The translations under genes and the position numbers were made by a program. From positions 302,178-366,177 of the forward strand of contig JACPKF010000001.1 of NCBI GenBank assembly GCA_016187125.1: a stretch of 64,000 nt of DNA, read 5' to 3'. Source of the stretch: Candidatus Saccharimonadota bacterium. Lineage in GTDB: Bacteria; Patescibacteriota; Saccharimonadia; Saccharimonadales; UBA10212. The notes under the pieces were generated by a model that was not told the DNA's origin, searched no databases, and worked only from the letters and a program-made list of their open reading frames with translations. Positions 1,909 to 46,132 of the stretch are shown here, piece after piece. The first letter of the stretch is position 1, and each line of letters opens with the position of its first letter.

Positions 1909-2039
1909 CTTTTATGGTCCTTCGACTTAAAATAATAAGCCCTCCGTCGCCAATCTCCTATACTAAAGTTTCGGAGATCAAGAAGGCTATGGAGGGCATT
2001 CTACTTCTCTAAATTCTACGAAGCTTTAGCGGAGTAGAA

Positions 2040-2115
2040 TGGTGGGATCGGAGGGATTTGAACCCCCGACTTCTTGCGTGTGATGCAAGCACTCTAGCCA
2101 CTGAGTTACGATCCC
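2040..2115 (-). tRNA. tRNA-Val (anticodon CAC), CCA encoded
   Basis: The reverse complement GGGATCGTAACTCAGTGGCTAGAGTGCTTGCATCACACGCAAGAAGTCGGGGGTTCAAATCCCTCCGATCCCACCA folds as a cloverleaf. The acceptor stem is GGGATCG/CGATCCC and the anticodon loop is ATCACAC. Confidence 0.9.
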
Positions 2116-2235
2116 TCGTCGAAATCGACGTATCGGCTTCCGTAAGTACAAGTTTATACTTACTTACAGCCTCAGGTCGCTTCCTCCTCTTCAATTTTGC
2201 AAAGATCTGCTAGAGCACGATTTTGTAAAATTGTG
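2116..2235 (-). promoter_or_regulatory. stable-RNA promoter/leader cassette (copy upstream of tRNA-Val)
   Basis: In gene orientation it reads AATTTTACAAAA-N-TTTGCAAAATTGAAGAGGAGG, then hairpin GTAAGTA/TACTTAC, then TTTCGACGA directly before the tRNA 5' end. The layout matches the five other copies. Confidence 0.6.
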
Positions 2236-2311
2236 AGCTGTAAAGGAATTATAGGTTAATCGCGAGTTTTACTCGAGAGGTTTACCTCGAGCTTGTCGCC
2301 ATTCGATAAAC

Positions 2312-2524
2312 TCATGGCGACCCCGAGCCGGTTGAATGGGTCGAGAGGTGCCATAGGCCACAGTAGCGGCATTTGTAAACTTTTAGCTTCGTGCCGCGCC
2401 GCCACCGTAAAACATTGGCCTCTGTTTGAGCTTCACTTTTCGTATCAAAAGCCATTTTATCAGCGCAGGGTAAAAGTTCTGGCGGAGTATTATCCATCAA
2501 TAAACTCCTGAGAATAACATTCAA
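2312..2524 (-). CDS. small hypothetical protein with C-terminal YKCRYCGLWHL motif (zinc-ribbon-like)
   Basis: 70-aa ORF from the track. The true start may be an internal Met (MDNTPP or MAFDTK). No family recognised. Confidence 0.35.
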   Translation of the reverse strand: MNVILRSLLMDNTPPELLPCADKMAFDTKSEAQTEANVLRWRRGTKLKVYKCRYCGLWHLSTHSTGSGSP

Positions 2525-2688
2525 AACACGCCGTTATATTTAATGGCCGCCCAAATTCCTAAAATCCCGCCGATGACTCCGCCCAAAATACTCCACGGCG
2601 AGAAAAGTCCTGCGCCAAACAACACCGGCACATATGAACCGACAAAACCGCCGATGGTCAAAAATAAATATATGTAGCCTTTGCTCAA
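2521..2688 (-). CDS. small glycine-zipper membrane protein (55 aa, TTG start)
   Basis: Not in the track. GGAGG lies 7 nt upstream of the TTG. Translation is (M)SKGYIYLFLTIGGFVGSYVPVLFGAGLFSPWSILGGVIGGILGIWAAIKYNGVF, two hydrophobic GxxxG-rich helices. It overlaps the stop of the upstream gene by 4 nt. Confidence 0.5.
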   Translation of the reverse strand: MSKGYIYLFLTIGGFVGSYVPVLFGAGLFSPWSILGGVIGGILGIWAAIKYNGVF

Positions 2689-3299
2689 ACTGATGCCTCC
2701 TTGGCTCTTTTTTTTAAAAAATAGCTAATAACCGGACTATAAAGCGTGATAGCCATAAGTATGCCTGGAATGTGCCCAAATATAGGCATTTTTTTTATTC
2801 TAATGCCGGGGACTATAGTAGGTCGGCTAAAAACTATATTGTCAAACTGTGCTCTGATGTCTAACATTTTATGTTTATCGGCACTTTGCAGCTTGGCCAC
2901 ATTGGCGTCGGACATTATCAGCGACTGCTTAAAGGCTGGGTTTTTAATGTAATAGGAGAGATTCACCCCACGCAGATTCCTAATTTTGCCACACACGTAA
3001 ACCACCCCCGCTATCTTGTCTTTCCTGATCATATAGGTGTTCAAGGCAGCGCTGGCTCCGGCGCTGACGCCAACTAAGGAAACTTGGTTACCACCCGCCG
3101 CCAATTTGTCTACCAGTGCCCCGATTCTTTCCAGCTTTGGCTCAAAAGCTTCGCCGTCGGCCCAACCAATGATGTGAAATTGGGCCCTAACCCCAAATAT
3201 CCGCCATAGTTTAATAATTTTGTCCTGGCCCCATGGTCGGTGGTCGCCAATCCCCGGAAGATAAATAACATGGTGTAGCCTGCTCACTGCTATGAGCAT
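2685..3299 (-). CDS. alpha/beta hydrolase fold protein
   Basis: 204 aa. Nucleophile elbow GVSAGAS (GxSxG) after a beta-strand; HHVIYLPGIGD near the N-terminus. Confidence 0.6.
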   Translation of the reverse strand: MLIAVSRLHHVIYLPGIGDHRPWGQDKIIKLWRIFGVRAQFHIIGWADGEAFEPKLERIGALVDKLAAGGNQVSLVGVSAGASAALNTYMIRKDKIAGVVYVCGKIRNLRGVNLSYYIKNPAFKQSLIMSDANVAKLQSADKHKMLDIRAQFDNIVFSRPTIVPGIRIKKMPIFGHIPGILMAITLYSPVISYFLKKRAKEASV

Positions 3300-3334
3300 A
3301 GCAAAGCTTACGAATGCAAACTATTCCAGTAGAG

Positions 3335-4153
3335 TTATGTTTTAGGTAGAACCCGGTTACCCAAAACCCGACCTTGAGTTTCTTGTTGTATTCTTTCTAC
3401 TTCACCCAAAAGACCAGTTTGTCTCACTCCTTCTGGATCCAACCGCCTAGCAACTAAGAATGATAAAAGTCCTTGCAAGCTAAGTACGTTAACAAGTTCT
3501 CGTGCGCTATCACCAAATTTTGGTTTAAGTACTTTCTCGGCAGTTTGTGCATTAATTTTTCCAGAGAAATTATATCTACTTGAGAAAGAATCCAATAAAC
3601 TCTGTGCGCTTGGCGTTACATTATCTTCTCCTCTGAGAGGATAAAGCCAGTGATTTGCTCGCCAAATATCGTCATGGGTCGTAGCACAAACATGCGGTGC
3701 CGATGTATCACGAATCACTACAGATAAATGCTTAGCAACTTCAGAATGAGCTAAGGCTCGAGAATATTGTCGCCTTCCATCGCTACCCGAGTATCCATAG
3801 TAATCTACATTATCAACGATAATTAAGCCTTGGTTTCCAACGGCTTCAGCGAAGTGGTTCAAAACACTGGTTGCATTTGAAGCACCAGCTCTGCTTCCAC
3901 CACTAATTTGAGCTTTTAGAGTTAAAGTTGGCATTTCTAAAGCATCATTTCTGGCCAACCTGGCAATATCCGATACAAGATGTGTTTTACCAGCACCAAC
4001 ACTAGCTTCAATCAAACAACTACCATTGGCAACAACTAGATCCATCACATTTTGGGCATCAACTGGGAAGAAACCTGGATGCTCATCCAAACCAGTCATC
4101 GGTGCAATGATGCAATAGCCATGCCCATTTCTCATATCTTCAAATGACTTCAT
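3335..4153 (-). CDS. orphan P-loop NTPase
   Basis: 272 aa. Walker A is EASVGAGKTH and Walker B-like is GLIIVDNVD. No further family recognised. Confidence 0.55.
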   Translation of the reverse strand: MKSFEDMRNGHGYCIIAPMTGLDEHPGFFPVDAQNVMDLVVANGSCLIEASVGAGKTHLVSDIARLARNDALEMPTLTLKAQISGGSRAGASNATSVLNHFAEAVGNQGLIIVDNVDYYGYSGSDGRRQYSRALAHSEVAKHLSVVIRDTSAPHVCATTHDDIWRANHWLYPLRGEDNVTPSAQSLLDSFSSRYNFSGKINAQTAEKVLKPKFGDSARELVNVLSLQGLLSFLVARRLDPEGVRQTGLLGEVERIQQETQGRVLGNRVLPKT

Positions 4154-4516
4154 AAAACCTCAAAAATAAAAACGGGACTGTTGTAGTCCGGTTCCTCTTA
4201 ATTGCAATTTGTACTTTTTGGCCAAGCGCGGAACTACAGCATTTTCTCGTCGAGGACAAGAATAATTCTGCTTAGTTCAAGCTTGCGCACCATGGCAACA
4301 ATACTACATCCTAGATAACAGCAATACAAGCTTAATTGGCAAGAAAAATAATTCCCAATACCAGAGCCAGCCCCAAAAGCCCGGTAACAATAATTCCCGA
4401 CCTACCCATAACAGTTCTACTATACACGCAAAAGGATCTTGCAAAAAGTTGCTCACCTCTGTTATACTATTCTCAGTACCTTGAGTTATTACAATCATTC
4501 CCTCTTTGCAGCTTAA

Positions 4517-4631: not shown

Positions 4632-5227
4632 GGGGCTGAATTTAAGCTCGACGTTGGACTTTAACAACTAGTTTGCAGGTCGTGCGCACTGAACGTGGGA
4701 CCTACCACAGGGTGTTTTGTCAGGGCCGAAATTGAAACAATTTCGAGCGAAACAGGTTTTTTCGATTGAAGCGTAGCTAAGGCTTACGTTGAATGAGAAA
4801 AAACCGGTTGCAGCCGAAACTTGGACAATTTTTAGGCGACTAAATACCGTGTGGTAGGCCCCTAATCCGGTGCAAACCCAACAAATGCAATAGCATTTAT
4901 TTCGGGATTCGGTCTTTTGGCCGCGTTCCGAGCGCGAATTTTGGGCCTTTTCGAAGGTTTTAAATTCGCACCAGCTTACGCCTGAGGGCCTAAGCCACGC
5001 TTACCACGACATCAGATAGTGGCTGCGGCGTGTCATATTATCTGGTTGCGCAGGTTTTTCTTTCCATAAAATCTGTTAAGTTTTAGGAATAGGAGACGCG
5101 ACTTTTTGGCCATTTACCGGCCGTGTTTCCGAACTAGGACGTAAGTCCTATCCTAAATGGCCTAAACCTGTAGACGACTAGTTGAATAATCCGACGGACG
5201 TGGGTGTGATACCCACCAGCTCCACCA
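4632..5227 (+). ncRNA. ssrA: tmRNA (ssrA), unusually long (~596 nt)
   Basis: The 5' end GGGGCTGAATTTAAGCTCGACG and the 3' end GGACGTGGGTGTGATACCCACCAGCTCCACCA form the tRNA-Ala-like acceptor/T-arm. An internal open frame (4866..4982) ends ...GFKFAPAYA followed by TGA at 4983-4985, which is a plausible tag. The resume codon could not be fixed. Confidence 0.85.
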
Positions 5228-28088: not shown

Positions 28089-28763
28089 ATGTTTAAAATT
28101 CAAAAATTTGATCTAGTTGTAGCACTTTTTATTTTTGGTGTTATGACAGCCGAGATATTCGGCTCCAAAACCTTCCCGCTGACTAACTTTAGCTGGATGC
28201 ACCTTAACGCTAGCGTGGCTATTTTTGTGCTGCCACTGCTTTTCACCCTTACTGATGTGGTAGTCGAAGTCCATGGTAGAGCCCGGGCCCGTAGCATGGT
28301 GTGGTCCGGTTTAATAGTCATAGCTCTGTTGTTGCTTTTTTCGCTTCTAGCAACCCATCTGCCACCCTCTAAAAGATTTGCAGCTTCAGAGTCCGCCTAT
28401 GATAAGATTTTTGGCTTAACAGCGCGTATTTCGGCTGCCAGTTTAGCTGCTTTTGCCATATCGGAGTTTTTGGATGTAGCGATTTTTGCTAAGCTGCGCG
28501 AAAAACTGCACAAAAAGGCGCTTTGGCTGCGTAATAATTTGTCTAATTTCATCTCAATGTTTGTCGACTCACTGGTCTTTATTTTTCTGGCCTTTTATTC
28601 GTTCAGTCACGGGCTAGGAGATAACTTGACCTTTTTGTTTGGCCTAATAATTCCCTACTGGCTGATTAAATGTTCTTTGTCTGTTTTGGAGACACCGCTG
28701 GTCTATCTAGGAGTAAGGTGGCTTAAGGAAGATAAAGCAAAAAATGTTAGTAAGACCACTTAA
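28089..28763 (+). CDS. queuosine-precursor transporter (YhhQ/VUT family)
   Basis: 224 aa, multi-TM: LLFTLTDVVVEVHGRARAR, ISEFLDVAIFAKLR, FVDSLVFIFLAF. Confidence 0.75.
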   Translation: MFKIQKFDLVVALFIFGVMTAEIFGSKTFPLTNFSWMHLNASVAIFVLPLLFTLTDVVVEVHGRARARSMVWSGLIVIALLLLFSLLATHLPPSKRFAASESAYDKIFGLTARISAASLAAFAISEFLDVAIFAKLREKLHKKALWLRNNLSNFISMFVDSLVFIFLAFYSFSHGLGDNLTFLFGLIIPYWLIKCSLSVLETPLVYLGVRWLKEDKAKNVSKTT

Positions 28764-29493
28764 GACTAAAAAGATACTGCCCGGCGCTCAATCTATGGTT
28801 GAAGTCTTAGACGAAAGCTTGGAAAAAGTAGAAGAAAAAAACATTCTGGTTGTGACTTCTAAGATTGTGGCGCTATGTGAAGGCAGAGCAGTTCCCATAA
28901 AAGGTAATGATAAAGAAGAGTTAATCAAGCAAGAAGCTGATTATTACTTGCCGCGTCGATCAAGCAAGTGGAATTTTGAGTTCACCATAACCAAAAAGAC
29001 TCTAATAATGTCCGCTGGCATCGATGAATCAAACACTAACGGAAATTATTTGCTGTGGCCTAAAGATCCGCAAAAATCAGTCAATGAGATTCGATCTTAT
29101 CTGAAAAAAAGATTTAGTCTAGAAACCGTAGGCGTAATTATTACCGACAGTTCCTGCACCCCAATGCGCTGGGGGACTGTTGGTGTGCCTATCGCCTACA
29201 GTGGGTTCGAGCCCAAAAAGAACTACATCGGCACAAAAGATCTATTTGGCTATACATTAAAAGTTAGTCAGTCTAATATTGCCGGCGGCTTGGCCGCGGC
29301 GGCAGTTGTAACCATGGGAGAGGGTAAAGAGCAAACACCTTTGGCGTTAATTTCGGATATCCCGTTTGTTAGTTTTTTGGATCATGATCCAACCCAAGAG
29401 GAGTTAGATCAATACTTTATCGGCCATAAGGAAGACGATCTGTTCGAGCCATTCCTCAGTAGCGTCAAGTGGCTCCCCGGCAAAAACAAATAA
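28744..29493 (+). CDS. CofE-like gamma-glutamyl ligase (putative folate-metabolism gamma-glutamate ligase)
   Basis: 249 aa: ILVVTSKIVALCEGRAV, AGIDESN, ITDSSCTPMRWGTVGV, MGEGKEQTPLALI. Sits in a folate gene context. Confidence 0.7.
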   Translation: MLVRPLKTKKILPGAQSMVEVLDESLEKVEEKNILVVTSKIVALCEGRAVPIKGNDKEELIKQEADYYLPRRSSKWNFEFTITKKTLIMSAGIDESNTNGNYLLWPKDPQKSVNEIRSYLKKRFSLETVGVIITDSSCTPMRWGTVGVPIAYSGFEPKKNYIGTKDLFGYTLKVSQSNIAGGLAAAAVVTMGEGKEQTPLALISDIPFVSFLDHDPTQEELDQYFIGHKEDDLFEPFLSSVKWLPGKNK

Positions 29494-29583
29494 ATTTTGG
29501 TACTCCGTGCTAAACGAGACCTGACTGCCGATAGGCAGGTTAGAATCTCGATTATTCAGTTCACTGATGGCTGAACCAGGAGT

Positions 29584-29784
29584 TTAAGCTTGTGTAGCTG
29601 AGCTGACGACAACCGGCGGCTGGCAACCGCAGTGAACATCGGCTTGACTGCAGGCCTTACACTTCATGGTGCAGTAACGGTCCGAGCCAGCGTGCTTGTG
29701 ATTTTCGTCGTGGTTATCGGACTCGCTGCCGCATATAGCACATTTCCAACCCTCGGTTTTGCCATTACATTTTGGACATTCCAT
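29584..29784 (-). CDS. small Cys/His-rich metal-binding protein (66 aa, 11 Cys)
   Basis: MECPKCNGKTEGWKCAICGSESDNHDENHKHAGSDRYCTMKCKACSQADVHCGC. Lies directly downstream of merA. Confidence 0.6.
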   Translation of the reverse strand: MECPKCNGKTEGWKCAICGSESDNHDENHKHAGSDRYCTMKCKACSQADVHCGCQPPVVVSSATQA

Positions 29785-29852
29785 AGCTATTTCCCCTTCT
29801 TATTATGCTTTTATTATAGGCTACGGTAGTTATTTTACTTTTATGATTTTGT

Positions 29853-31256
29853 TTATATGCAGCAACTTAGCTTGGACACATCCTGCGTAAATGACATAGC
29901 GACTAATTTAATAGCTTCGGACATTGTTGGGAATACAGGCAGCATATTTGTTAAATCGTCTATAGTATTCTTGTTTTTAATTAGCACCATTGCCTGGGCA
30001 ATCAAGTCTCCAGCATTTGGGGCGAGTATATGCACACCCATAATCACCTTAGTTTGCGGGTGGATTGCCATTTTAATAACACCTTCTGTTCGTTTGGTTA
30101 TCAATGCTTTGGGCAACTTATCAAAAGTAACTGTGCGGCAGGCACAGACCTTTAGTTCTGCCATTTGTCTGTCTTCGGTATAGCCAACCGAGGCCAGCTG
30201 CGGGTCTGTAAAGACCGCGTAAGGCACGATGTTGTAGTCTATAAATTTACCAGAACCGTTGAGGGCATTTTCTACGGCATACGTGCCTTCACGGCCAGCC
30301 GTCGTTTCCAGCCGCAGCGGTAAGTTAGTCACATCGCCAGCAGCATAGATGTGAGGCTGTGAGGTCTGTAGTGTTGGCTGAGTAACGATAGCTTGCTTAT
30401 CGTCAACTTGAATGCCAGCTACTACTAAGTTCAGTTCAGCTGTATTTGGCGTTTTGCCAGCCGCCAGTAGTATTTCATCTACGTCTATAGGGTGTTCGCC
30501 AGATGTATCATTGTAAAATACTGTCTTCCTGCCATTCTCAGTTGTAACTTTAGTAACTTTGACTCCAGTCTTTATGTTGATACCTTCACTCCCTAGTATC
30601 TGACTTAACTGCTGAGTCAAAACAGGCTCGGCATTAGGCATAACAGAGGTTGCTCTTTGCAAGATGGTTACTTGACTACCAAAACGAGCATACAGCTGTG
30701 CCAATTCTAAGCCTACCGGCCCTGCTCCAATAACCGCCAGCCGTTTGGGAATTGTGTTGAGCCGCATGGCTTCTATGTGAGTTATGTAGCCAGCTTCAGC
30801 TAGCCCCTCAATCTTTGGCAAGGTGGCTGTTGAGCCAGTAGCGATGATGAACTTAGCTGTCTCTAGGTTTTGTTCACCTACTTTAATCTGATTGCTGGAC
30901 ACAAAGCTGGCTTTACCTTTTATGTAGGTTACGTTGCCCAAGTCCCTAAGCACTTGTTCGTATTTCTCTGTCCGCAATTTTTCAACTAGCGCCAGTTCGT
31001 CCGCCACAACAGCGGCATAATCAGTGGCCTTTACAGCTAGTTTAATGCCTGGCACGCCGTGATGTTTAGCGGTATACACTAACTCGGCAGCGTGCAACAG
31101 CGTTTTTGAAGGCACGCAACCAACGTTTACACAGGTGCCGCCCAGCGGCAGACCATCATTAACAAAAGCCGTTTTAGCTCCTAGCTCGTTGGCTTTAATA
31201 GCTGCGGCAAAAGCTCCGGCACCGCCGCCGATGATAACAAGATCAAAGTTACTCAT
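29853..31256 (-). CDS. merA: mercuric reductase core (no NmerA domain)
   Basis: The start is taken at MSNFDLVIIGGG (ATG 31256, an ATGAGTAA overlap with the upstream stop). Redox site GGTCVNVGCVPSK; C-terminal vicinal Cys pair KLSCCI. Confidence 0.8.
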   Translation of the reverse strand: MSNFDLVIIGGGAGAFAAAIKANELGAKTAFVNDGLPLGGTCVNVGCVPSKTLLHAAELVYTAKHHGVPGIKLAVKATDYAAVVADELALVEKLRTEKYEQVLRDLGNVTYIKGKASFVSSNQIKVGEQNLETAKFIIATGSTATLPKIEGLAEAGYITHIEAMRLNTIPKRLAVIGAGPVGLELAQLYARFGSQVTILQRATSVMPNAEPVLTQQLSQILGSEGINIKTGVKVTKVTTENGRKTVFYNDTSGEHPIDVDEILLAAGKTPNTAELNLVVAGIQVDDKQAIVTQPTLQTSQPHIYAAGDVTNLPLRLETTAGREGTYAVENALNGSGKFIDYNIVPYAVFTDPQLASVGYTEDRQMAELKVCACRTVTFDKLPKALITKRTEGVIKMAIHPQTKVIMGVHILAPNAGDLIAQAMVLIKNKNTIDDLTNMLPVFPTMSEAIKLVAMSFTQDVSKLSCCI

Positions 31257-31650
31257 GGTGATGACCCCCTGATTTTTTACTAAATTGTCTTTTGTTAAAA
31301 ACAACAGCTACAATTACAGTAACAGCCCCTGGGGCCCATATCTGCCAGCCGCCAAAACCAGCGCCGCCAAATACATAGCGGCCCAGATAGAGCAATACTC
31401 CACCGACTATCAGTAACAATAGGGGGTACGGATCTCTATGTGAGCGGTAATCAAAAGCAAAACCCACAAGACTCAGAGCGAGTAATAGAGCAATAACCCA
31501 CCGCCACACTGGAATAAGGGCACCTAGACCAAGATAGGTAAGTAGTGAAGCGGAACCCAGCCAACATAAAGGACAGGCTCCTACAGCGCCTGCGCCCAGA
31601 ATCGGAGCTAAAGGGGCTAAAGGATTTTTTGGACTTGAACTCATTGACAC
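31249..31650 (-). CDS. membrane protein with CPLC motif in TM1 and His-rich tail (putative Hg/metal transporter, MerC-like)
   Basis: 133 aa: GAVGACPLCWLGSASLL, 4 predicted TM helices, ends GGHHHE. Translationally coupled to merA. Confidence 0.5.
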   Translation of the reverse strand: MSMSSSPKNPLAPLAPILGAGAVGACPLCWLGSASLLTYLGLGALIPVWRWVIALLLALSLVGFAFDYRSHRDPYPLLLLIVGGVLLYLGRYVFGGAGFGGWQIWAPGAVTVIVAVVFNKRQFSKKSGGHHHE

Positions 31651-31668
31651 TAGCCTTTCCTGGTCAGC

Positions 31669-31986
31669 TTATACACTAAGCAATTCCTTTAATTCACTGC
31701 TAAAACCAGCCTGATTGAGAGAATAAAAAACGGTTTGGGCTTCTTTTCTGGTTTTAACCAAATTAACAGCCCGCAATTTGCTAAGACTGTGCGAGGTATT
31801 AGAAACCGACGTACCGACTAGCTCGGCAATGACCGTAACGCTAAGTTCAGGATGATGGCGAAGTAGGTAGCAAATCTTGAGTTTTGTAACATCGCCAATC
31901 ACCCCGCACTGGCGAGCACATAGTCCAATCGCCTCGTTATCTTGCAGCTCCTGCTTTAATCGTTGAGTATTTGAACGCATATTCAA
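31669..31986 (-). CDS. ArsR/SmtB family metalloregulator
   Basis: 105 aa: GDVTKLKICYLLRHHPELSVTVIAELVGTSVSNTSHSLSKLRAVNLV. The TTG track start may really be the ATG at 31980. Confidence 0.8.
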   Translation of the reverse strand: MNMRSNTQRLKQELQDNEAIGLCARQCGVIGDVTKLKICYLLRHHPELSVTVIAELVGTSVSNTSHSLSKLRAVNLVKTRKEAQTVFYSLNQAGFSSELKELLSV

Positions 31987-31991
31987 ATACT
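31966..31991. promoter_or_regulatory. 10-6-10 inverted repeat over the ArsR start (candidate operator)
   Basis: AGTATTTGAA cgcata TTCAAATACT spans the start codon region of 31669..31986. Confidence 0.45.
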
Positions 31992-32140
31992 ACTATTGCG
32001 TGTTTAGTTTGTAAATGACTTTCTTGTTTCAAATGCATGGATGATTGCGGCTTCTTTTGTTCTTCACACCAAAGAGCACGTTTTTCGTCGGTCTTTTCGT
32101 CCGGGCAGTAGGACCATAGTCTACGAATTGTCTACTCAGT

Positions 32141-32623
32141 TTATTCTACACGGCTCTCTATCAAGTTTAGGCCTATATAGCTTTCAAGCATCAAGATAAG
32201 GTAAGCGGCGTTGCCATACACAAATGACATACCAATAAACCATAAGAGGTAGCTGTCGTAGATTGGATCTTTCAGTATTTTATAAATGCCTTTGTGCGAA
32301 ATCTTTCCACGACCAAACAAGTTGCCGTTCGTTAGCGATTGAACACCTATTTCATGCAGGGCCATCATAAACACTCCAAAAGCCATCAAAAGCAGCACGT
32401 AACCTACAATTGGCAACAAATAGAAATTTATCCCGTAGTGGCCGTTCAAACTTACGAATAAATATATAAAAGCAATCCAAGCCGGCACTATGACAGCACT
32501 ATGGATTAACCAGCCATTTTGCCAGCGATTATAGTATTTATAGCGTCTTTGGGCATAAACACTAACCGAATTTATTGCTACCGCCAGTGCAAAAACCAAA
32601 CAAGTCAGAATAAAATAGATCAT
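32141..32623 (-). CDS. ICMT/PEMT-like membrane protein (tentative methyltransferase family)
   Basis: 160 aa, about 4 TM helices. KGIYKILKDPIYDSY resembles the GxYxxxRHPxY motif, but the C-terminal part of the family signature is missing. Confidence 0.4.
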   Translation of the reverse strand: MIYFILTCLVFALAVAINSVSVYAQRRYKYYNRWQNGWLIHSAVIVPAWIAFIYLFVSLNGHYGINFYLLPIVGYVLLLMAFGVFMMALHEIGVQSLTNGNLFGRGKISHKGIYKILKDPIYDSYLLWFIGMSFVYGNAAYLILMLESYIGLNLIESRVE

Positions 32624-32985
32624 TTTTTTAAACTTTTCTCGTACTCAAGATGTGTACCAACCCGAATCAGTTTGATAACACGAATGATCCGGAGTCCTCT
32701 AAGTAACTGAGCGAAAGTATATGGCAAGGGTATGGCGGCCAGCAGATAAAACCAGTTACTCTTGACGTAACCCCTTTTATTGGTTGTTAACTCTAGCTCA
32801 AGTACAAATTCTCCAATGAAAATAAGCCCCACAGTCACATCGAAAACATCGAGCGCTCTTAACTGAGCCGTGGAAAGATAGCCCAGTTGCTCAATCGCCA
32901 AAAATACCAAACTCAATGCTGCCAAAGTAAGGATTAAGCACTCCTTGGCGTATAGGAATTCTTTTAGTCTTTTGTTTTGTTTCAT
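32620..32985 (-). CDS. stand-alone voltage-sensor-domain-like protein (S1-S4, no pore)
   Basis: 121 aa. S2-like FDVTVGLIFIGEFVLEL, S3-like NWFYLLAAIPLP, and S4 with basic residues every third position (LLRGLRIIRVIKLIRV). It ends 14 aa after S4 and overlaps the next gene by 4 nt. Confidence 0.55.
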   Translation of the reverse strand: MKQNKRLKEFLYAKECLILTLAALSLVFLAIEQLGYLSTAQLRALDVFDVTVGLIFIGEFVLELELTTNKRGYVKSNWFYLLAAIPLPYTFAQLLRGLRIIRVIKLIRVGTHLEYEKSLKK

Positions 32986-33051
32986 TTCTTCCTGTCCTGC
33001 TAACAGCTTACTGCAGCTCCATATTAACCGCCATTTATTTTTTGCGTTTTC

Positions 33052-33480
33052 TTAGTATTTTCCTGCGGGCTGAACGTCTCGCAGTTTTTTACTGAGTAAA
33101 TCCATGAGATCGGATAAACCAGTTGTGCTCTTGAACTCGTCGCTGCTTATAAGCATAGTGATAGAGCCGTTTTGCTCTAAGATTATAGCCGGAAAAGTAA
33201 TATTTTGGTCGGAATAGGCCCGGCTGAACTCATCACGATGCATAAAGATCGATGGCATGCCTAGATTGACCACATATTGTTTCCATAATTTATTCATCGT
33301 TGCACCACTATAAGTCATCATGCACAGTTTACAGGGATATGTTTTTGGGCTGACTGTTTTACGGGCCAAATCTAGCATAGAGTGCATAAATCCACCCTTG
33401 GCATTGTAGACAAAAATAAGTTTTGACCCACACTTATTAATCGCCTCAGTCCCCAAAACTGCAAGATCATACTCCTTCAT
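33052..33480 (-). CDS. hypothetical protein with CKLC (CxxC) motif, thioredoxin-fold-like
   Basis: 142 aa with YPCKLCMMTYSG. No family recognised. Confidence 0.45.
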   Translation of the reverse strand: MKEYDLAVLGTEAINKCGSKLIFVYNAKGGFMHSMLDLARKTVSPKTYPCKLCMMTYSGATMNKLWKQYVVNLGMPSIFMHRDEFSRAYSDQNITFPAIILEQNGSITMLISSDEFKSTTGLSDLMDLLSKKLRDVQPAGKY

Positions 33481-33481
33481 C

Positions 33482-33865
33482 TCAGGTCTCGACTTTTTCT
33501 ACATGGCAATGGCAGCCAAAAGCCACATAATTATGAATGTTCCTATTAACGGCTTTAGCTGACTTTGCTACCGGATAAGGATAAGTCCAGGCTTCGTCTT
33601 TATGCCACTTTTTAGCTTTACCTACGTCAAAATGTAGCTGTTTTTTGCCAAATGGATAGCTCAAGAGGGGGCGTAAAAAGCTGCGGTCAATAGATTCCGG
33701 CGGAAAATACCAATTCCCGTCTCTGTGAACAAGCTCCTGCTGGGGTGCTTCGGCGACAACATGGCCGTTCCAAATAGCCTTAAGTAACTTTTGTTGCTTC
33801 GCATCTTCCCTGTGCCAGCCCTCGTATTTTGCTAATAAGCCTTTTATCAAAAGATTCTCCTTCAT
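33482..33865 (-). CDS. DUF427-like protein
   Basis: 127 aa: AIWNGHVVAEAPQQELVHRDGNWYFPPESI...EAWTYPYP...YVAF. Confidence 0.55.
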   Translation of the reverse strand: MKENLLIKGLLAKYEGWHREDAKQQKLLKAIWNGHVVAEAPQQELVHRDGNWYFPPESIDRSFLRPLLSYPFGKKQLHFDVGKAKKWHKDEAWTYPYPVAKSAKAVNRNIHNYVAFGCHCHVEKVET

Positions 33866-33871
33866 TTTTAT

Positions 33872-35227
33872 TCATGCCACCGAATAAAAAGCTCGCTGCA
33901 CCCATTCCGACAGTGCCGGATGGGCATATACGGCTTTTGTGATGGCATTGGTTTTACCAGTTGCGTTCATAGCAATAACAATCTCATGGATAAGCGTGGT
34001 AGCATCAGGCCCGACTATGTGACCGCCTAAGATCTTATCCTCCTTACCGACTAATATTTTTACCAGGCCATTGTCTTGGAGAGCACTGCCCATACCAGTA
34101 TTTTTAAGTTCATACTTGCCGACTTTATAGTTGATGCCTTTCTGTTTCAACTCATCTTCGGTATAGCCAACTCCGGCTACTTGCGGCGAAGAAAATACGG
34201 CGTGCGGAATTTTGCGGTAATCAACAGTTTCTTTTTGGCCAAAAAAGGCGTTGTGGATTACGGGGCCGACCTGGTCGTTAGCGACATGTTTAAACGGCAT
34301 TAGACCGGTGATATCACCAAAGGCCCAAATGTCTTCAACATTCGTCTCAAAGTAATCATTAACCTTTATATAGCCCTTTTCGTTAGTCTCGATATTGCTG
34401 GCTCTAGCATCTAAGATATCGGCGTTAGATCGAATACCTGTAGCTATCAACAATTGATCGGCCGTAATTACCTCATCGCTATCTTTAAGCTTAATTTTAG
34501 TATTCTTACCTTCTTTATAAAGGCTTTCGGCCTCGGTTCGAAAACGGATGTCATAGCGCTTAGAAAACTCGTCAGTAAACCACCTGGCAATTTCGGAGTC
34601 TTCGTTTCTAATTAAAACTTCATCGCGTACTAGCATGGTTATCTTGGTGCCAAGCGCGCCAAAGAAGTGGGCCAGTTCAGCCGAAATGTAACCGCCGCCA
34701 ATAATTACTAGATGCTCGGGTTGTTTTTGCAGGCGCAGGGCTTCTTTACTTGTCAAATATGGGACACTGTCTAGGCCGTTAATCGGTGGAATAACAGCTC
34801 GCGCGCCGCCGGCAATAATTATTTTATCGGCCGTAATTGTTTCATCATGGACTTGCAACAGTTTTTTACCAATAAACTTTGACTTGGTTTTATAGTGTGT
34901 AATGTATGAGCTTTGGCGGATGCCTGTCTCAATCTGCCGGGCGGCGTTGTCGACATAATCTGATACATGTTTAACAATGGCCGAAAAATCAATCCCCTGA
35001 ATGGTGGCTTTAATGCCAAATTTACGACTGCTATTTATTGTGTCGGCGACATCGGCACTATGAATCAGCATTTTGGAGGGGATGCAGCCTCGATTTAAGC
35101 AAGTTCCACCCATCGGCCCCTCTTCAACCAAAGCCACTTTCATACCCTTGCTGGCGGCAAAAGATGCTACATCGAGGCCGCTGCCAGCCCCAATTACCAA
35201 GACATCAAAGCTTTTTACGGCTTTCAT
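33872..35227 (-). CDS. class I pyridine nucleotide-disulfide oxidoreductase (dihydrolipoamide/glutathione/mycothione reductase-like)
   Basis: 451 aa: FDVLVIGAGSG, redox site GGTCLNRGCIPSK, a second Rossmann fold IIGGGYISAELA, C-terminal HPALSE. Confidence 0.8.
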   Translation of the reverse strand: MKAVKSFDVLVIGAGSGLDVASFAASKGMKVALVEEGPMGGTCLNRGCIPSKMLIHSADVADTINSSRKFGIKATIQGIDFSAIVKHVSDYVDNAARQIETGIRQSSYITHYKTKSKFIGKKLLQVHDETITADKIIIAGGARAVIPPINGLDSVPYLTSKEALRLQKQPEHLVIIGGGYISAELAHFFGALGTKITMLVRDEVLIRNEDSEIARWFTDEFSKRYDIRFRTEAESLYKEGKNTKIKLKDSDEVITADQLLIATGIRSNADILDARASNIETNEKGYIKVNDYFETNVEDIWAFGDITGLMPFKHVANDQVGPVIHNAFFGQKETVDYRKIPHAVFSSPQVAGVGYTEDELKQKGINYKVGKYELKNTGMGSALQDNGLVKILVGKEDKILGGHIVGPDATTLIHEIVIAMNATGKTNAITKAVYAHPALSEWVQRAFYSVA

Positions 35228-35235
35228 GAGATTGT

Positions 35236-35340
35236 TTAGCTCTGTTTAGCTTCTTTTTCATTCTTTTTCTTAACAGACATACGCTGTTTGATGTGTTTTA
35301 AGGGCTTTTTCATTTGGGCGCTGCAAATTTGGCACTTCAT
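35236..35340 (-). CDS. possible 34-aa basic CxxC peptide
   Basis: Not in the track. GGAGAAAATA precedes the ATG. Translation: MKCQICSAQMKKPLKHIKQRMSVKKKNEKEAKQS. Speculative. Confidence 0.3.
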   Translation of the reverse strand: MKCQICSAQMKKPLKHIKQRMSVKKKNEKEAKQS

Positions 35341-35364
35341 TATTTTCTCCTCTTCTTAAGTTCT

Positions 35365-35580
35365 TTACAGATGCTGGCCGTGAGCTTTGTGAGTGTGTTC
35401 ATCAAGCTCCTGCTTGGTGGTGAAAGTTGCGGCGCACATCGGACACTTGAATTCAGCCGTCTCATTGTCGTGGCCGACATGTTCATCAGCATTGGCATGA
35501 TCGGCCATTTTATGTTTATGCAACTCGTCTTCCGTATCGAACCTCGCACTGCACATCGGGCAAGTTGTTGATTGATCCAT
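35365..35580 (-). CDS. small protein with two tandem classical C2H2 zinc fingers
   Basis: AAGGAG lies 7 nt before the ATG at 35580. Fingers: CPMCSARFDTEDELHKHKMADH and CPMCAATFTTKQELDEHTHKAH (C-X2-C-X12-H-X4-H). Confidence 0.65.
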   Translation of the reverse strand: MDQSTTCPMCSARFDTEDELHKHKMADHANADEHVGHDNETAEFKCPMCAATFTTKQELDEHTHKAHGQHL

Positions 35581-35680
35581 AATTACTCCTTTATTAAACA
35601 CATTATTTTGCTTTAAGCTAATCTGTCTATCTATCCCTATTCGATATAACCTCCTCTCCCCTTAGTTTATTTGGCCGTAC

Positions 35681-35932
35681 TTACGCCAGACCTAAAACTT
35701 GGTCGAAGCGTGGTTTGTCAAAGCCGAGGATCTTTTCTTCTCGTCCATCATCAAACACAATATGTGTGCAAGGCACACCCATTGAATTACAAACATGCAT
35801 AGCCTCGACTGCCTTTTCTGGTTGTTCATCGAGTAAGACTTCTTCATAGACAATCTTTTTGCTCTTTAGGTAGTTCTTGAGCATGTTGCAGTACGGGCAT
35901 GTCTTGGTACTATAGATCTTAATTTTTGGCAT
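35681..35932 (-). CDS. glutaredoxin/NrdH-like redoxin
   Basis: 83 aa: KIKIYSTKTCPYCNMLKNYL (CPYC). Confidence 0.8.
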   Translation of the reverse strand: MPKIKIYSTKTCPYCNMLKNYLKSKKIVYEEVLLDEQPEKAVEAMHVCNSMGVPCTHIVFDDGREEKILGFDKPRFDQVLGLA

Positions 35933-35993
35933 ATATCCTCCTTTAAGCTAGCGTTTAGTTTATTTAGGAAAAATCAAAATTATGTAAATTTTT

Positions 35994-36359
35994 TTATTGT
36001 CTTGCAGATGGCCTCATCATGGCGCCCAAGCGAATCGGCATCATAAACAGCACAATTAAAATAGCCACTAATGACGAAAAAATACCAGTCAAAATCTTAC
36101 CAACCCCCACTAGTTTTAACCGAAGTAGCTCTGACGGATAGTTTTGAATTTGGGCCAGCTGGTTATTCAGTTCGGATCCAGTTGGCGCTGAGTCGCGGTC
36201 TGCTTTACTAAGACTGTAGTAACTGGTCTGTAACTGGTGGAATCTCGCCTCCTGAGGCGCTACTTGTTTTTGCATGACATAGCCCTGTCCAGCAAAGATA
36301 ATGCCGGCAATGGTTAGAGCCATAACGATCATGATTATTGGTATCATTTTCTTGTCCAT
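35994..36359 (-). CDS. hypothetical two-TM membrane protein
   Basis: 121 aa with N- and C-terminal hydrophobic helices. Confidence 0.5.
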   Translation of the reverse strand: MDKKMIPIIMIVMALTIAGIIFAGQGYVMQKQVAPQEARFHQLQTSYYSLSKADRDSAPTGSELNNQLAQIQNYPSELLRLKLVGVGKILTGIFSSLVAILIVLFMMPIRLGAMMRPSARQ

Positions 36360-36498
36360 ATTATTCTCCTTATTATTTTCATTCTTACTTTCTTAGTTAC
36401 ATATTTCAGTTACCTAATTTAGGCATAGGATAATCATTTGATTTGTCACTAGCATTGAAAGTTGCAGTTTGGGCACATATTTATCCTCCTTTTTACAT

Positions 36499-36813
36499 CT
36501 ATTGCATAAAACAATTAACCAGTTTTTTAACTAAAGTATGGTCTTTCTTGAGCACGTAGCAGATCATCTTGCCGTAGCGACGCTTGTCTACTAATCCCAC
36601 TAGTTCAAATATCCGAAAATGTTGTGAAGCTGCAGGCACAGAAATTCCAACTTTGTCGGCAACCTCACTGACGCAAAATTCCTCTTTAGATAAGAGAATT
36701 TTGAACATTTTGTAACGAGTCCTATCGCCCAGTAGCTGTAAAACATTAACTAGTTGCTCTTCGCTTCTTGTCAAAGTCATTGGTCTTTTAAGACTTGTTT
36801 TCATATTAATCAT
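36499..36813 (-). CDS. ArsR family transcriptional regulator (second copy)
   Basis: 104 aa: LGDRTRYKMFKILLSKEEFCVSEVADKVGISVPAASQHFRIFELVGLV. Confidence 0.78.
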   Translation of the reverse strand: MINMKTSLKRPMTLTRSEEQLVNVLQLLGDRTRYKMFKILLSKEEFCVSEVADKVGISVPAASQHFRIFELVGLVDKRRYGKMICYVLKKDHTLVKKLVNCFMQ

Positions 36814-36882
36814 TTAAGCAAATACTTAAATTAATGTCAATGGCAAATTGGTATGCTTATCACAAAAGCTTAAATCCAGCGC

Positions 36883-37827
36883 TCAGTTTTTAGCGCTGGC
36901 TGCAGGTTTTTGAATCTTTTGTAGAGCTAGCTTTTTAGCGTCTTTGGCAATCAAGTAAATAGTGCCTGTTAGTAACAGCGCCCCAAAAATCTGCGAGGTA
37001 GTGAGGCCTTGATGCAACCAGACGTAACCGACAAAGACGGCCGAGGCCGGCCAAGCCAGTTCTAAAACCGCAGCCCGTGAAGCCAAAACTCGCTTCAAGC
37101 CAAAATAGTAAATCATTAGTGCTACTAAACCAGTAGAAAAAGTAATGGCCGCGATGTATTTGAATTGACTAAAAGTTAGAGCGCCTAACGAGCCAGTACT
37201 GCCCGATAAAACCACAAACAACAGGGCGAAAATAGGTGTAATCCCAAAGCGGGCGGCCGTGATGTGCAGCGATGAAGTATCTTTTAGAGCATACCGGGAA
37301 AAGGCCGTGGAAACGCCCCAGCTAGCCGCTGCTCCTACGGCAAACAAAGCGGCTATGAGCGTTCCCTTACCCGTGGATAGGTTCACGCTCAGGTCCGGGA
37401 AGGAAACCAAGTAAGCTCCTAAAAGAGCAACTGCGGACAAGCCAAAAAACTTTTTAGTTAAAGGTTCATGAAGCAATGCGGCAGCGGCGCCAATCGCAAA
37501 GATTGGATTGAGCTGTTGCAGTAGCACCACGACCGAGAACGGAATGAAATTAATTCGGCCCAGAGCCGCGGTATAAAGGATTGTGCCAACGGCGCCCGAC
37601 AAAAACGACACGCCGATAATTGCCAGCCATTGTTTACGGGTAAGTTTTTTAAAAGCCCTGTAAGAAGCAATGATAATTGGCGCTAGTAGTACAACCCCAA
37701 AAACATGCTCCCAAAAAACTATTACCGGTGCCGGCAGACTATATAAATGTCGGCGCAACAGGCCGTCCAAGCTCCAAAGAAGCGCGGCCAAAACCACAGC
37801 ACCAGAACCATACTTAATATATTTCAT
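36883..37827 (-). CDS. EamA/DMT superfamily transporter
   Basis: 314 aa, about 10 TM helices, duplicated EamA-like halves. Confidence 0.75.
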   Translation of the reverse strand: MKYIKYGSGAVVLAALLWSLDGLLRRHLYSLPAPVIVFWEHVFGVVLLAPIIIASYRAFKKLTRKQWLAIIGVSFLSGAVGTILYTAALGRINFIPFSVVVLLQQLNPIFAIGAAAALLHEPLTKKFFGLSAVALLGAYLVSFPDLSVNLSTGKGTLIAALFAVGAAASWGVSTAFSRYALKDTSSLHITAARFGITPIFALLFVVLSGSTGSLGALTFSQFKYIAAITFSTGLVALMIYYFGLKRVLASRAAVLELAWPASAVFVGYVWLHQGLTTSQIFGALLLTGTIYLIAKDAKKLALQKIQKPAASAKN

Positions 37828-38199
37828 CGAGTATCCTTTCTGTCCTTTTCAAGACACCCCCTACCTTTTCAGATAAGAAGTCCCGACTATACGGTCGGCG
37901 CATGAGTTTCACATGCTCGTCCCCACCCAATTTGTTGAATCAAATTGGGAAACCCAAATTTCATAAATCTGGGTGGGGTTGATGACTATCACATCCGATT
38001 GGCGAATTTCACGCCACCCTGGAAATTTAATTGTGAATATATTTATCTTACCACGCCACGCTTTAGTTTGTTGCGACGTGGTACGGCTTTACGAAGCCGC
38101 TAGAACTTACTTTATAGCAATAGGTATTCCCTCCACATCTGCACTTCAGGATTCAGTGCGGGGCAGGCCTCCGACCCTTTGTTCCGATCCCGCACCTTT

Positions 38200-38276
38200 T
38201 GGTACCCCCTGAGGGATTTGAACCCCCGGCCTCATCGTCCGAAGCGATGCGCTCTGATCCGCTGAGCTAAGGGGGC
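38200..38276 (-). tRNA. tRNA-Arg (anticodon TCG), CCA encoded
   Basis: The reverse complement is GCCCCCTTAGCTCAGCGGATCAGAGCGCATCGCTTCGGACGATGAGGCCGGGGGTTCAAATCCCTCAGGGGGTACCA. It is flanked by the complementary CCCGCACCTTTT (38189-38200) and AAAAAGGTGCGGG (38279-38291). Confidence 0.88.
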
Positions 38277-38375
38277 ACAAAAAGGTGCGGGACCAATCCA
38301 CTGCCTGTCCGCCACAGTCCGCCTTGACGGACGTCGGCGGAAGCTACGGGCGCACACAGGTCTCATTTTAACAGA

Positions 38376-38885
38376 TTAGGGTGAGTTAATCTCTTGTAGT
38401 TTCTTGTCCACAAATTTCGTGGCTTGAGCTACATCGTGGTCTTTAGGGATATGAATAAAGCCAAATTTAACGTCTTTGTTATTTTTGAGAAAATCTAAAA
38501 TTACGTACATGGAAAAATTGCAGACATATTGGCCCCCGTTATAGGAAACCCAAGAACTGCTGTCTTTTTTGAGCTTCAGGCTAACTTTTATTTTTGAGGG
38601 TCCAGCTCTTAAAATGGTCTGCGGCTTATCTTGTTTATGAAGCTTCCAGAGGTTAAGGGCTTGGCGTTCGATCCGAATTTTATTGCCTCGTGGATATTGG
38701 CCAAGTCCGATTATCAAATCAGGAGCAATGGCTTTTACTTTTTTTAGAAACATTTCCCTGTCAAATCGTACCGGAAAAACAACCCTTATCAAATTCCGGC
38801 GTTTTTTGATATTAGCTAGAACTTCTTGGCTAATATTACTAGGCCGCTTTCCCCACGGTTTAAATGCGTATACTAAAACTTTCAC
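38376..38885 (-). CDS. pcp: pyroglutamyl-peptidase I (peptidase C15)-like
   Basis: 169 aa: MKVLVYAFKPWG, GQYVCNFSMY (Cys), GFIHIP (His). Confidence 0.65.
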   Translation of the reverse strand: MKVLVYAFKPWGKRPSNISQEVLANIKKRRNLIRVVFPVRFDREMFLKKVKAIAPDLIIGLGQYPRGNKIRIERQALNLWKLHKQDKPQTILRAGPSKIKVSLKLKKDSSSWVSYNGGQYVCNFSMYVILDFLKNNKDVKFGFIHIPKDHDVAQATKFVDKKLQEINSP

Positions 38886-46066: not shown

Positions 46067-46132
46067 AGGTTACTGCCGTAAACTTCGCACATTGTACCAG
46101 CGATTGCTGATTGAGTGGAATGCTTCTGGTTT

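Follow-up and report, generated by a model that had tools for sequence, protein, structure and literature searches.

What occupies the space between the gene of a CofE-like protein and that of tRNA-Arg(TCG) in a Candidatus Saccharimonadota bacterium, and how did it come to be there? The segment in question lies at positions 29,494-38,145 of a 64-kb stretch of contig JACPKF010000001.1 (the window, on whose numbering all coordinates of the block are given); it is ~8.5 kb long and carries 15 genes, all on the minus strand. An earlier note had described it as an accessory mercury and thiol-redox block beside the tRNA gene. The 15 contiguous open reading frames (ORFs) that it listed were all confirmed at their places, their family assignments hold against the Pfam and NCBIfam profile libraries, and each of the motifs it quoted (CPLC, KLSCCI, CKLC, CPYC, GGTCVNVGCVPSK and GGTCLNRGCIPSK) was located. 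The block is not, however, the one unit that was supposed: it contains three units (A, B and C), each under its own control, and is a mosaic rather than a single system. We consider it likely that this is a lineage-specific accessory mosaic of units that circulate among candidate phyla radiation (CPR) bacteria, and that it was acquired horizontally into the slot between CofE and tRNA-Arg(TCG).

The left limit of the block is set by a convergent backbone gene encoding the CofE-like folate gamma-glutamate ligase (28744..29493, plus strand; PF01996; TIGR04132, 262 bits). When this protein was searched in one genome per species and in JGI metagenomes only distant relatives were found, with 55-62% identity. 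These provided four syntenic loci from three relatives, L004 (a Saccharimonadales metagenome-assembled genome, MAG), L064 and L058/L059; here and below L-numbers (L004, L058, L059, L064 and L138-L148) denote the loci of relatives or homologues compared with the window. They share a common backbone of FTHF cyclo-ligase-(Vut_1)-CofE-like, tRNA-Arg(tcg), and tRNA-Arg(ccg)-HTH-MurB-GlyA. The backbone genes of the window have their closest relatives in Saccharimonadales and other CPR genomes, and the backbone proteins are 53-74% identical to those of the nearest syntenic relatives. The slot between CofE and tRNA-Arg(tcg) contains a DoxX-like gene in L004, a LigT-like gene in L064 and nothing in L058/L059, and no gene of the block stands in the slot in any of the four loci. 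A slot that holds different genes or none in relatives is a site of turnover, and with respect to every available syntenic relative the block counts as accessory, which supports the earlier note on this point. Both junctions of the block recur in independent assemblies of several sequencing runs, and are thus not artefacts of binning or assembly.

Unit A (31980-29584) has the order ArsR1 > MerC-like protein > MerA > Cys-rich peptide. The MerA protein (29853..31256) scores 520.8 bits with TIGR02053, for which the equivalog cut-off is 454.45 bits, and every other disulfide-reductase model in NCBIfam falls below its own cut-off. Its closest relatives in the PDB are the mercuric reductases 5x1y, 4ywo and 1zk7, the last of these being Tn501 MerA (297 bits). 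Both the GGTCVNVGCVPSK motif and the C-terminal KLSCCI are found. The redox pair C42-VNVG-C47 aligns with the corresponding pair of all three structures (C207/C212 in Bacillus numbering), and C465-C466 aligns with the CC of all three (C628/C629). Y99, in a conserved KYE motif, is the equivalent of Tyr264, and F442 occupies the position of Tyr605/Tyr535; there is likewise a Phe at this position in the characterised MerA of Metallosphaera sedula (4ywo). Thus residues specific to MerA, for which the earlier note had asked, are present, and none of the signatures in use in the field is missing: there are both Cys pairs and the Tyr264 equivalent, with Phe at the 605 position. The residue criteria applied are those of Christakis, Barkay & Boyd 2021 (PMC8261052), where Phe605 is a signature of archaeal MerA and is found in 46 bacterial MerAs.

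The protein is a MerA core without the NmerA domain. Its probable start at 31256 gives a length of 467 aa, which is that of all the homologues; more than 100 CPR MerA homologues of 467 aa are 64-84% identical to it. Judged by its sequence, the window MerA joins the published CPR MerA clade. That lineage, clades K12-K14, is sister to the MerA of Thermococci and Archaeoglobi, and its lateral acquisition has been inferred (PMC8261052). It shares with the window protein the 467-aa core lacking NmerA, the CxxxxC pair, the Y264 equivalent, the C-terminal CC and the F605 equivalent. The window differs in its host, a Saccharibacteria MAG, and in having its operon context (ArsR, MerC-like protein and Cys-rich peptide) defined here; Saccharibacteria were not among the taxa of the published survey, and ArsR is not mentioned there (PMC8261052). 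The annotation of the gene is already public, as an identical protein in NCBI is named mercury(II) reductase [Candidatus Saccharibacteria bacterium] by PGAP, and several block proteins are identical to GenBank MBI2588910-MBI2588919 (locus tags HYW35_017xx), which lie on a 397-kb contig. Carriage by phages was looked for by scanning IMG/VR for peptide patterns of MerA; no relative came up, though a single-sequence query makes a weak test.

Might this protein not be a mercury reductase in vivo, but serve in a general defence against disulfides and oxidants (hypohalous or hypothiocyanous acid) or against other metals, in the manner of RclA and the streptococcal 'MerA'? General thiol-redox genes are plentiful in the block, an AhpC/Redoxin gene lies between ArsR and MerA in other CPR cassettes, MerP, MerT, MerB and NmerA are all lacking, and reduction of Hg(II) by CPR MerA is itself deduced from sequence. 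Yet the scores of the protein with the RclA and hypothiocyanous-acid reductase models are 245 and 228 bits, far below the cut-offs of 740 and 650 respectively, while TIGR02053 is passed. The vicinal C-terminal Cys pair is present in MerA and absent from the second reductase of the block, and RclA-type enzymes are not known to have such a pair. In addition F442 agrees with the biochemically characterised M. sedula enzyme, and merA is preceded by a translationally coupled gene for a CxxC membrane protein. We therefore regard a function unrelated to mercury as very unlikely indeed, and retain the assignment of MerA as a predicted Hg(II) reductase.

The gene at the head of unit A encodes ArsR1 (31669..31980), which matches NF033788 with 63.6 bits (cut-off 55). 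The ORF as listed begins with TTG at 31986, and a conserved ATG at 31980 is the likely true start. C21, C25 and C37 are invariant in five homologues, and the protein is 75-89% identical to the ArsR preceding MerA in L138-L142. A consensus scan revealed a promoter-like sequence TTTACA-17-TAGTAT (31987..32015, minus strand) ending 6 nt before the ATG; L140 and L138 keep the stretch TAGTAT-TTGAAT-ATG, and L139 keeps part of it. ArsR1 is thus predicted to be an ArsR/SmtB-type repressor of the mer unit.

Between ArsR1 and MerA lies a membrane protein of 133 aa (31249..31650) that passes the PF03203 gathering score of 27.6 bits marginally, with 29.1 bits, and has no match in NCBIfam. It has three to four hydrophobic segments, of which a simple hydropathy scan gives three clear ones, and the CPLC pair (C26-P-L-C29) is inside the first. 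In MerC of Tn21 the Cys pair is in the first of about four transmembrane helices. The 8-nt overlap of the gene with merA (ATGAGTAA), which the earlier note gave for its tight coupling, is real. The protein is only ~30% identical to the CxxC membrane proteins at the equal position in L138 and L140, and membrane proteins at this position in other CPR cassettes do not align with it beyond the CxxC pair. We regard it as a putative importer of Hg(II) with its translation coupled to that of merA.

The last gene of the unit encodes a Cys/His-rich protein of 66 aa (29584..29784) with the pattern CPKC...CAIC...C-x3-C-x2-C...CGC, giving 9 Cys rather than the 11 that had been counted. No match was found in Pfam or NCBIfam. 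Its family comprises 8 clusters of 54-68 aa that are 74-86% identical. The peptide is next to MerA in one of six other distinct MerA contexts (L148), and in L143-L145 it lies in unrelated surroundings that lack MerA. With three of its four other contexts lacking MerA, it was rejected as an obligate mer gene and kept as an occasional partner; it is a putative metal-binding peptide. Of the four genes that the earlier note likened to a minimal mer operon, the comparison of cassettes shows ArsR-[membrane CxxC protein]-MerA alone to be the conserved mer core in CPR.

Unit A can be compared with known mer operons. ArsR-type repressors control those of Sulfolobus solfataricus and Streptomyces lividans, and such operons usually lack Hg transporters, the two being negatively correlated (Boyd & Barkay 2012, PMC3466566). 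The chromosomal location, the simple gene set and an ArsR/SmtB-type protein in place of MerR are common to these operons and unit A. Unit A differs by its MerC-like protein and by the absence of both a TRASH-domain protein and MerB, and its control by ArsR1 is predicted. The logic of the Tn21/Tn501 operon (merR-T-P-(C)-A-D-E) is also shared, with a sensor, a membrane importer bearing a thiol pair and an NAD(P)H/FAD-dependent MerA, but unit A has no MerR, MerT, MerP, MerD, MerE, NmerA, transposase or resolvase, and the equivalent of Tyr535 is Phe.

Where else is this cassette found? The contexts of CPR MerA follow the scheme ArsR-[AhpC/Redoxin]-[small membrane or HMA-like CxxC protein]-MerA-[ArsP permease or other]. 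MerA is 78-82% and ArsR1 75-89% identical to copies in contigs with which the window has no other gene in common, and some of the contigs bearing cassettes are labelled Microgenomates or Patescibacteria. In L148 the sequence from MerA through the spacer to the Cys-rich peptide is 81% identical in nucleotides over 1.6 kb to window 31235-29630, and is directly followed by a large serine recombinase. L138 has a phage-type tyrosine integrase with Fic and RepA-like genes, and L139 has copper-resistance genes and a large serine recombinase. Because the identity of the cassette is maintained in unlike contexts, with recombinases as neighbours, and because the published phylogeny agrees (PMC8261052), the sequence data favour horizontal circulation of the mer cassette among CPR bacteria. 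A vehicle with a serine recombinase would explain the lack of long direct repeats.

We also observed differences in cargo among the cassettes. Most of those examined (L138-L142) carry AhpC/Redoxin between ArsR and the membrane protein, and the window cassette has none. Two of them have an ArsP-type permease after MerA, and two have DUF3105 and a 211-aa protein of no known function upstream; neither arrangement is present in the window cassette.

The competing possibility is that the block is ancestral, was inherited vertically and was lost in the relatives by CPR genome reduction, the identity of MerA and ArsR then reflecting purifying selection. The relatives are distant (53-74% protein identity), there are no mobility genes or scars, and neither GC content at third codon positions (GC3) nor tetranucleotide usage distinguishes the block from the rest of the window, all of which speaks for this possibility. 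However, a slot filled by a DoxX-like gene, a LigT-like gene or nothing suggests a hot spot of turnover over simple deletion. The cassette proteins are 75-89% identical and its DNA 81% over 1.6 kb, while the backbone DNA aligns to that of the relatives only at the tRNA. The same modules are found beside recombinases in L138, L139 and L148, and lateral acquisition of MerA in CPR was the conclusion from its phylogeny (PMC8261052). Vertical inheritance thus appears unlikely, and horizontal acquisition is the better account of the cassette.

If the block was acquired, was it by integration into the tRNA gene? The tRNA-Arg(TCG) gene (38200-38276, minus strand, called by ARAGORN and Rfam) has its 3′ end toward the block, as the earlier note stated, but the block does not end there. 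The window at 38146-38317 is 84% identical over 172 nt to L064, covering the tRNA, a 41-nt leader and a 54-nt trailer. Since the trailer is conserved with L064, in which the block is absent, native sequence passes beyond the end of the tRNA, which places the right-hand limit of the insert between 38031 and 38145. The note had also pointed to a weak repeat of the tRNA end at the far border. A repeat TTTTGGTAC does exist between the tRNA region and the spacer of CofE and the Cys-rich peptide, with 9 nt and a local alignment of 13/15, but 9.6% of shuffles attained its alignment score, and the word is found in longer copies at 46130 and 11131; as an att site it was therefore rejected. No Pfam recombinase was found in the block, and searches by tblastn with three recombinases (the serine recombinases of L148 and L139 and the tyrosine integrase of L138) and with the RepA-like and Fic proteins found nothing in the 64 kb, in accord with the earlier statement that there is no integrase. 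Partial-tRNA scans with Rfam of both borders at E<=10 revealed no tRNA fragment in the window.

Composition gives little further indication. GC content is 43.7% in the block and 46.1% outside it, a difference of 2.3 points that puts the block at the 7th percentile of sliding windows of equal size, so that the impression of a more AT-rich block has a marginal basis. The GC3 of long genes is 0.456 in the block and 0.441 in the rest (p=0.89), and the tetranucleotide distance of the block has a rank of 0.44. By the earlier note its claim would fail for a block both indistinguishable from the genome in composition and conserved in all relatives; the composition is indistinguishable, but the block is absent from the syntenic slot of the relatives, so that the claim stands.

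A classical tRNA-targeted island would have arisen by a tyrosine integrase acting at the 3′ end of tRNA-Arg(TCG), leaving the TTTTGGTAC repeat, with later deletion of the integrase. Accessory cargo next to a tRNA gene in a slot variable among relatives is what such islands have in common with the block, and related cargo lies beside recombinases elsewhere, including the mer element of L138 with its phage-type integrase. L064 adds a tRNA-3′-end-like fragment that hints at past integration at the locus. The differences are these: the junction is at least 54 nt past the tRNA, with the native trailer retained, there is no integrase or remnant of one within 64 kb, and significant direct repeats and compositional deviation are lacking. 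Given the chance-level repeat, the native trailer, the lack of a recombinase and the absence of a compositional signal, the block is not a classical tRNA-integrated island; this explanation is largely refuted, and we give it very little weight.

Some other features of the tRNA region were observed. In pre-tRNA-Arg(TCG) (38180-38300, minus strand) leader and trailer are complementary to each other in 26-nt arms (88%), by which the acceptor stem is lengthened; two positions differ on both sides between the window and L064 (3646-3817) with pairing kept, and the arms may be a conserved stem for pre-tRNA processing. The fragment in L064 is GGGTTCGAATCTTGCCGCGGGTACCA, at ~3560-3590 on the minus strand and ~115 nt downstream of tRNA-Arg(tcg); Rfam gave no tRNA match there, and it may be the scar of an earlier integration at the locus. 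In the relatives the stretch from tRNA-Arg(tcg) to the HTH gene contains a tRNA-Arg(ccg) (L004 11734-11810, L064 3876-3951). In the window a pyroglutamyl-peptidase-like gene (38376-38885, minus strand) takes this place, and there is no tRNA-Arg(ccg) in the 64 kb. L058/L059 contain a different 2.7-kb insert (1600-4316) between the two tRNA-Arg genes, not 3′ of tRNA-Arg(tcg), with a Crp-like regulator, a STAS-like protein, a Ser/Gly/Asn-rich surface protein and a sortase-like protein as its cargo. Elsewhere in the window (5019-5227, plus strand) there is a sub-threshold match to the tmRNA model RF00023, with 23.1 bits and E 2e-5 over only 209 nt, for a model of 374 positions; ARAGORN found no tmRNA in the window.

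Unit B spans 36840-32141, with ArsR2 at its head, and is ordered ArsR2 > membrane protein > Grx > C2H2 protein > 34-aa ORF > reductase > DUF427 > CxLC > voltage sensor > PEMT-like. The neighbourhood recurs in three other loci. The order is DsbA-x-DsbA-ArsR2-Grx-DUF427-reductase-CxLC-PEMT in L146, and ArsR2-Grx-DUF427-x-FMN reductase-CxLC-ArsR1-x-AhpC-x-MerA in L139. In L147 it is DsbA-x-ArsR2-Grx-DUF427-Trx-DsbD-DUF427-G6PD/6PGD-FMN reductase-CxLC, followed further on by Ion_trans-reductase-x-PEMT. Thus the neighbours within these related loci include G6PD/6PGD, FMN reductase, Trx, DsbA and DsbD.

ArsR2 (36499..36804; HTH_20) matches NF033788 with 66.6 bits (cut-off 55) and has weak similarity to BigR (38 bits against 155). 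C44 and C82 are invariant among its homologues, and the conserved ATG at 36804 is the likely true start. The homologues in L139, L146 and L147 are 56-71% identical and head the same gene order. Upstream lies TTGACA-N17-TTAAAT-N7-ATG (36805..36840, minus strand), and the sequence from the -35 element through the ATG is almost invariant in the four loci, in which the ArsR2 proteins are only 51-69% identical; this fits an operator that overlaps the promoter. For both ArsR1 and ArsR2 we note that the sigma-70-like promoters stop 6-7 nt from the conserved ATG, and that this is so in other CPR loci also, implying leaderless or near-leaderless mRNAs.

The redoxin of unit B (Grx, 83 aa, 35681..35932) is glutaredoxin/NrdH-like (PF00462, 47.6 bits), with the motif C12-P-Y-C15; its best NCBIfam match is the YruB family, below the cut-off. 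Homologues with 49-66% identity lie directly after ArsR2 in L139, L146 and L147. The second reductase (451 aa, 33872..35227; Pfam Pyr_redox_2 and Pyr_redox_dim) has the motifs GGTCLNRGCIPSK, CLNRGC and HPALSE. It passes no NCBIfam model, scoring 508 bits against 634 for a dihydrolipoyl dehydrogenase subfamily, 415 against 501 for mycothione reductase (NF005884) and 362 against 636 for the mycothione reductase model TIGR03452. The nearest PDB entry is the mycothione reductase 8qcj (292 bits). NCBI names the protein dihydrolipoyl dehydrogenase (MBI2588914.1). Both this identity and that of a second MerA were rejected, since all cut-offs are missed and there is no C-terminal Cys pair. On sequence the assignment of the enzyme goes no further than class I FAD/NAD(P)H disulfide reductase, mycothione-reductase-like. 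Unit B resembles the mycothione reductase/mycoredoxin (Mtr-Mrx1) and glutathione reductase/glutaredoxin systems in encoding such a class I enzyme next to a small CPYC redoxin. It differs from them in that its reductase is below every NCBIfam cut-off and is replaced by other paralogues in related loci; those of L146 and L147 are unclassified class I paralogues. No genes for the biosynthesis of a low-molecular-weight thiol were seen in the neighbourhoods examined, and we know of no such thiol in CPR.

The CxLC protein (142 aa, 33052..33480) belongs to an unnamed family of 67 clusters with invariant K..SPxTYPCxLC, W and FxHRDEF; its own pair is C50/C53 (CKLC). It has no Pfam match, and homologues in L139, L146 and L147 are 62-70% identical. 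An AlphaFold2 (AF2) model has a predicted local distance difference test score (pLDDT) of 74.7 and in Foldseek matched mostly thioredoxin-fold proteins (E 6e-3 to 5e-2), so that the model suggests the protein probably has a thioredoxin fold. Four members (P0142, P0143, P0146 and P0164) were seen to have a C-terminal extension of ~50 aa, CPECG...C..WC....C, that is rubredoxin- or zinc-ribbon-like, and one source names the extended members rubredoxin. The adjacent DUF427 protein (127 aa, 33482..33865; PF04248, 39.7 bits) shares the neighbourhood in L139, L146 and L147, and DUF427 has the beta-tent fold that is common to MsrB and GFA (PMC4287342).

The two final genes of unit B encode membrane proteins and overlap by 4 nt. 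The first is a stand-alone voltage-sensor-like protein of 121 aa (32620..32985; PF00520, 39.5 bits). The match is confined to profile positions 5-112 of 241, corresponding to S1-S4 with no pore. The S4 segment is LLRGLRIIRVIKLIR, with Arg or Lys at every third position in canonical manner, and the S3 acidic residue is apparently replaced. The family is rare: of 1.84 billion cluster representatives 223 reach E<=1e-3, and 44 of these reach 1e-10 or better; the longer matches are ordinary K+ channels. AF2 predicts four helices (pLDDT 80.8), for which the top Foldseek matches are the sensors of KvAP, KCNQ and Ci-VSP, at E>0.1. There is a homologue with 42% identity in L147. The second protein (160 aa, 32141..32623; PF04191, 39.3 bits) is a PEMT/ICMT-like membrane methyltransferase with four hydrophobic segments and no relative in the PDB by sequence; homologues in the unit B neighbourhood are 43-45% identical (L146 and L147), and one in L138 is 33% identical. 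A Rosetta-stone fusion of the two proteins was sought and rejected, as none was present in the 10 longer matches scanned from the best 150 family matches.

Three further genes complete the unit. The membrane protein after ArsR2 (121 aa, 35994..36359) has two hydrophobic segments by hydropathy. The C2H2 protein (71-78 aa, 35365..35601) has two fingers, each of zf-C2H2_4, zf-C2H2_6 and zf-C2H2 matching in two stretches, and none was seen in the related unit B loci. The 34-aa CxxC ORF (35236..35340) has no family match and its reality is uncertain; it is also a gene call in independent Logan assemblies. Thus Pfam and NCBIfam provide no family for four proteins of the block, namely the CKLC protein, the 121-aa membrane protein with two segments, the 34-aa ORF and the Cys-rich 66-aa protein.

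Unit B is likely to serve in NAD(P)H-driven maintenance of thiols and disulfides, with repair or buffering under stress by oxidants or thiophilic metals. A bolder suggestion is that unit B is an undescribed, CPR-wide, ArsR-controlled redox system that replaces a missing buffer of the glutathione or mycothiol type, with the pore-less sensor coupling membrane potential to a membrane enzyme or conducting protons, and that might also deliver Hg(II) to a MerA that has no NmerA; we think it improbable.

Unit C (38030-36883) consists of a candidate flavin mononucleotide (FMN) riboswitch, or RFN element (37861..38030, minus strand), and an EamA/DMT transporter gene (314 aa, 36883..37827; PF00892, 111 bits in two stretches). 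The riboswitch candidate is within the 372-nt spacer between the tRNA and EamA, and ends 33 nt from the EamA start codon. Its RF00050 score of 48.7 bits does not reach the gathering score (66.2), though E is still 5.3e-8 for the whole window. The default Rfam scan passed it over, and it showed up only in E-value mode. The match is full-length (model positions 1-138), the core sequences ...CAGGG..GUGAAAUUC.. and ..GUGAAA.UC..GCGCCGACCGUAUAGUCGGGA are aligned, and there is a 44-nt insertion in a variable loop.

The earlier note had called the transporter an exporter. ImpX and RibN, riboflavin transporters controlled by FMN riboswitches, are of the DMT/EamA type. Transporter genes behind FMN riboswitches encode riboflavin importers (Gutierrez-Preciado et al. 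2015, PMC4418817), and because an FMN-riboswitch-like element is directly upstream the EamA/DMT protein is by analogy probably a riboflavin importer rather than an exporter. As with ImpX and RibN (PMC4418817), a lone transporter gene directly follows the RFN element; the differences are the score below gathering, the 44-nt insertion and the CPR host, and the likeness is one of context. That riboflavin uptake is linked to the block's two FAD enzymes is a plausible, if speculative, idea.

How might the block work as a whole? Most likely it would have been acquired horizontally from other CPR bacteria, the recombinase of its carrier having since been lost or never having integrated here. Unit A would be an ArsR-repressed mer cassette of archaeal or actinobacterial style. 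ArsR1 is expected to leave an operator overlapping the promoter once its three invariant Cys bind Hg(II). The MerC-like protein, from its family, would import Hg(II) by means of the membrane CxxC pair. The metal would pass to Cys465/Cys466 of MerA and on to Cys42/Cys47, to be reduced via FAD and NAD(P)H to volatile Hg(0), and the 9-Cys peptide might, more speculatively, be a soluble Hg- or Zn-binding carrier. In unit B the mycothione-reductase-like FAD enzyme would pass electrons from NAD(P)H to disulfides alongside the Grx-like redoxin, the CxLC protein and DUF427. The transporter of unit C would probably import riboflavin, the precursor of the FAD needed by both reductases.

A number of observations weigh against this account. 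No recombinase, att repeat or other mobility scar was found in the window, GC3 and tetranucleotides give no sign of foreign origin, and with relatives as distant as 55-62% in CofE loss of the block from them is possible. The adjacency of units A, B and C that might link them functionally is found in two loci only, the window and L139. In unit A the Hg(II) reductase activity of MerA is deduced from family membership, the MerC match is the marginal one given above, and the membrane protein before MerA is not orthologous among CPR cassettes, while usually having a CxxC. In unit B the reductase is a different paralogue in each locus, and the fold matches are hints only, those of the CxLC protein being weak (none at E<=1e-3) and those of the voltage sensor statistically non-significant. 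In unit C the riboswitch candidate does not reach the gathering score of Rfam, and non-canonical pairs are present in its P1 stem.

Overall this is an ordinary accessory region that does not overturn current understanding. It adds a Saccharibacteria example to the CPR MerA lineage, together with an operon context made up of a three-Cys ArsR and a membrane protein with CxxC, joined in some cases by a Cys-rich peptide. Less ordinary are the divergent FMN riboswitch and unit B, which is uncharacterised, recurs in other loci and includes a stand-alone voltage sensor. The former indicates that divergent CPR riboswitches are missed at Rfam gathering cut-offs, and the recurring thiol-redox neighbourhood offers a testable entry to CPR redox biology. 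The location of CPR mer cassettes beside serine and tyrosine recombinases bears on the exchange of stress genes by ultra-small episymbionts, and on metagenomic surveys of merA in mercury cycling.

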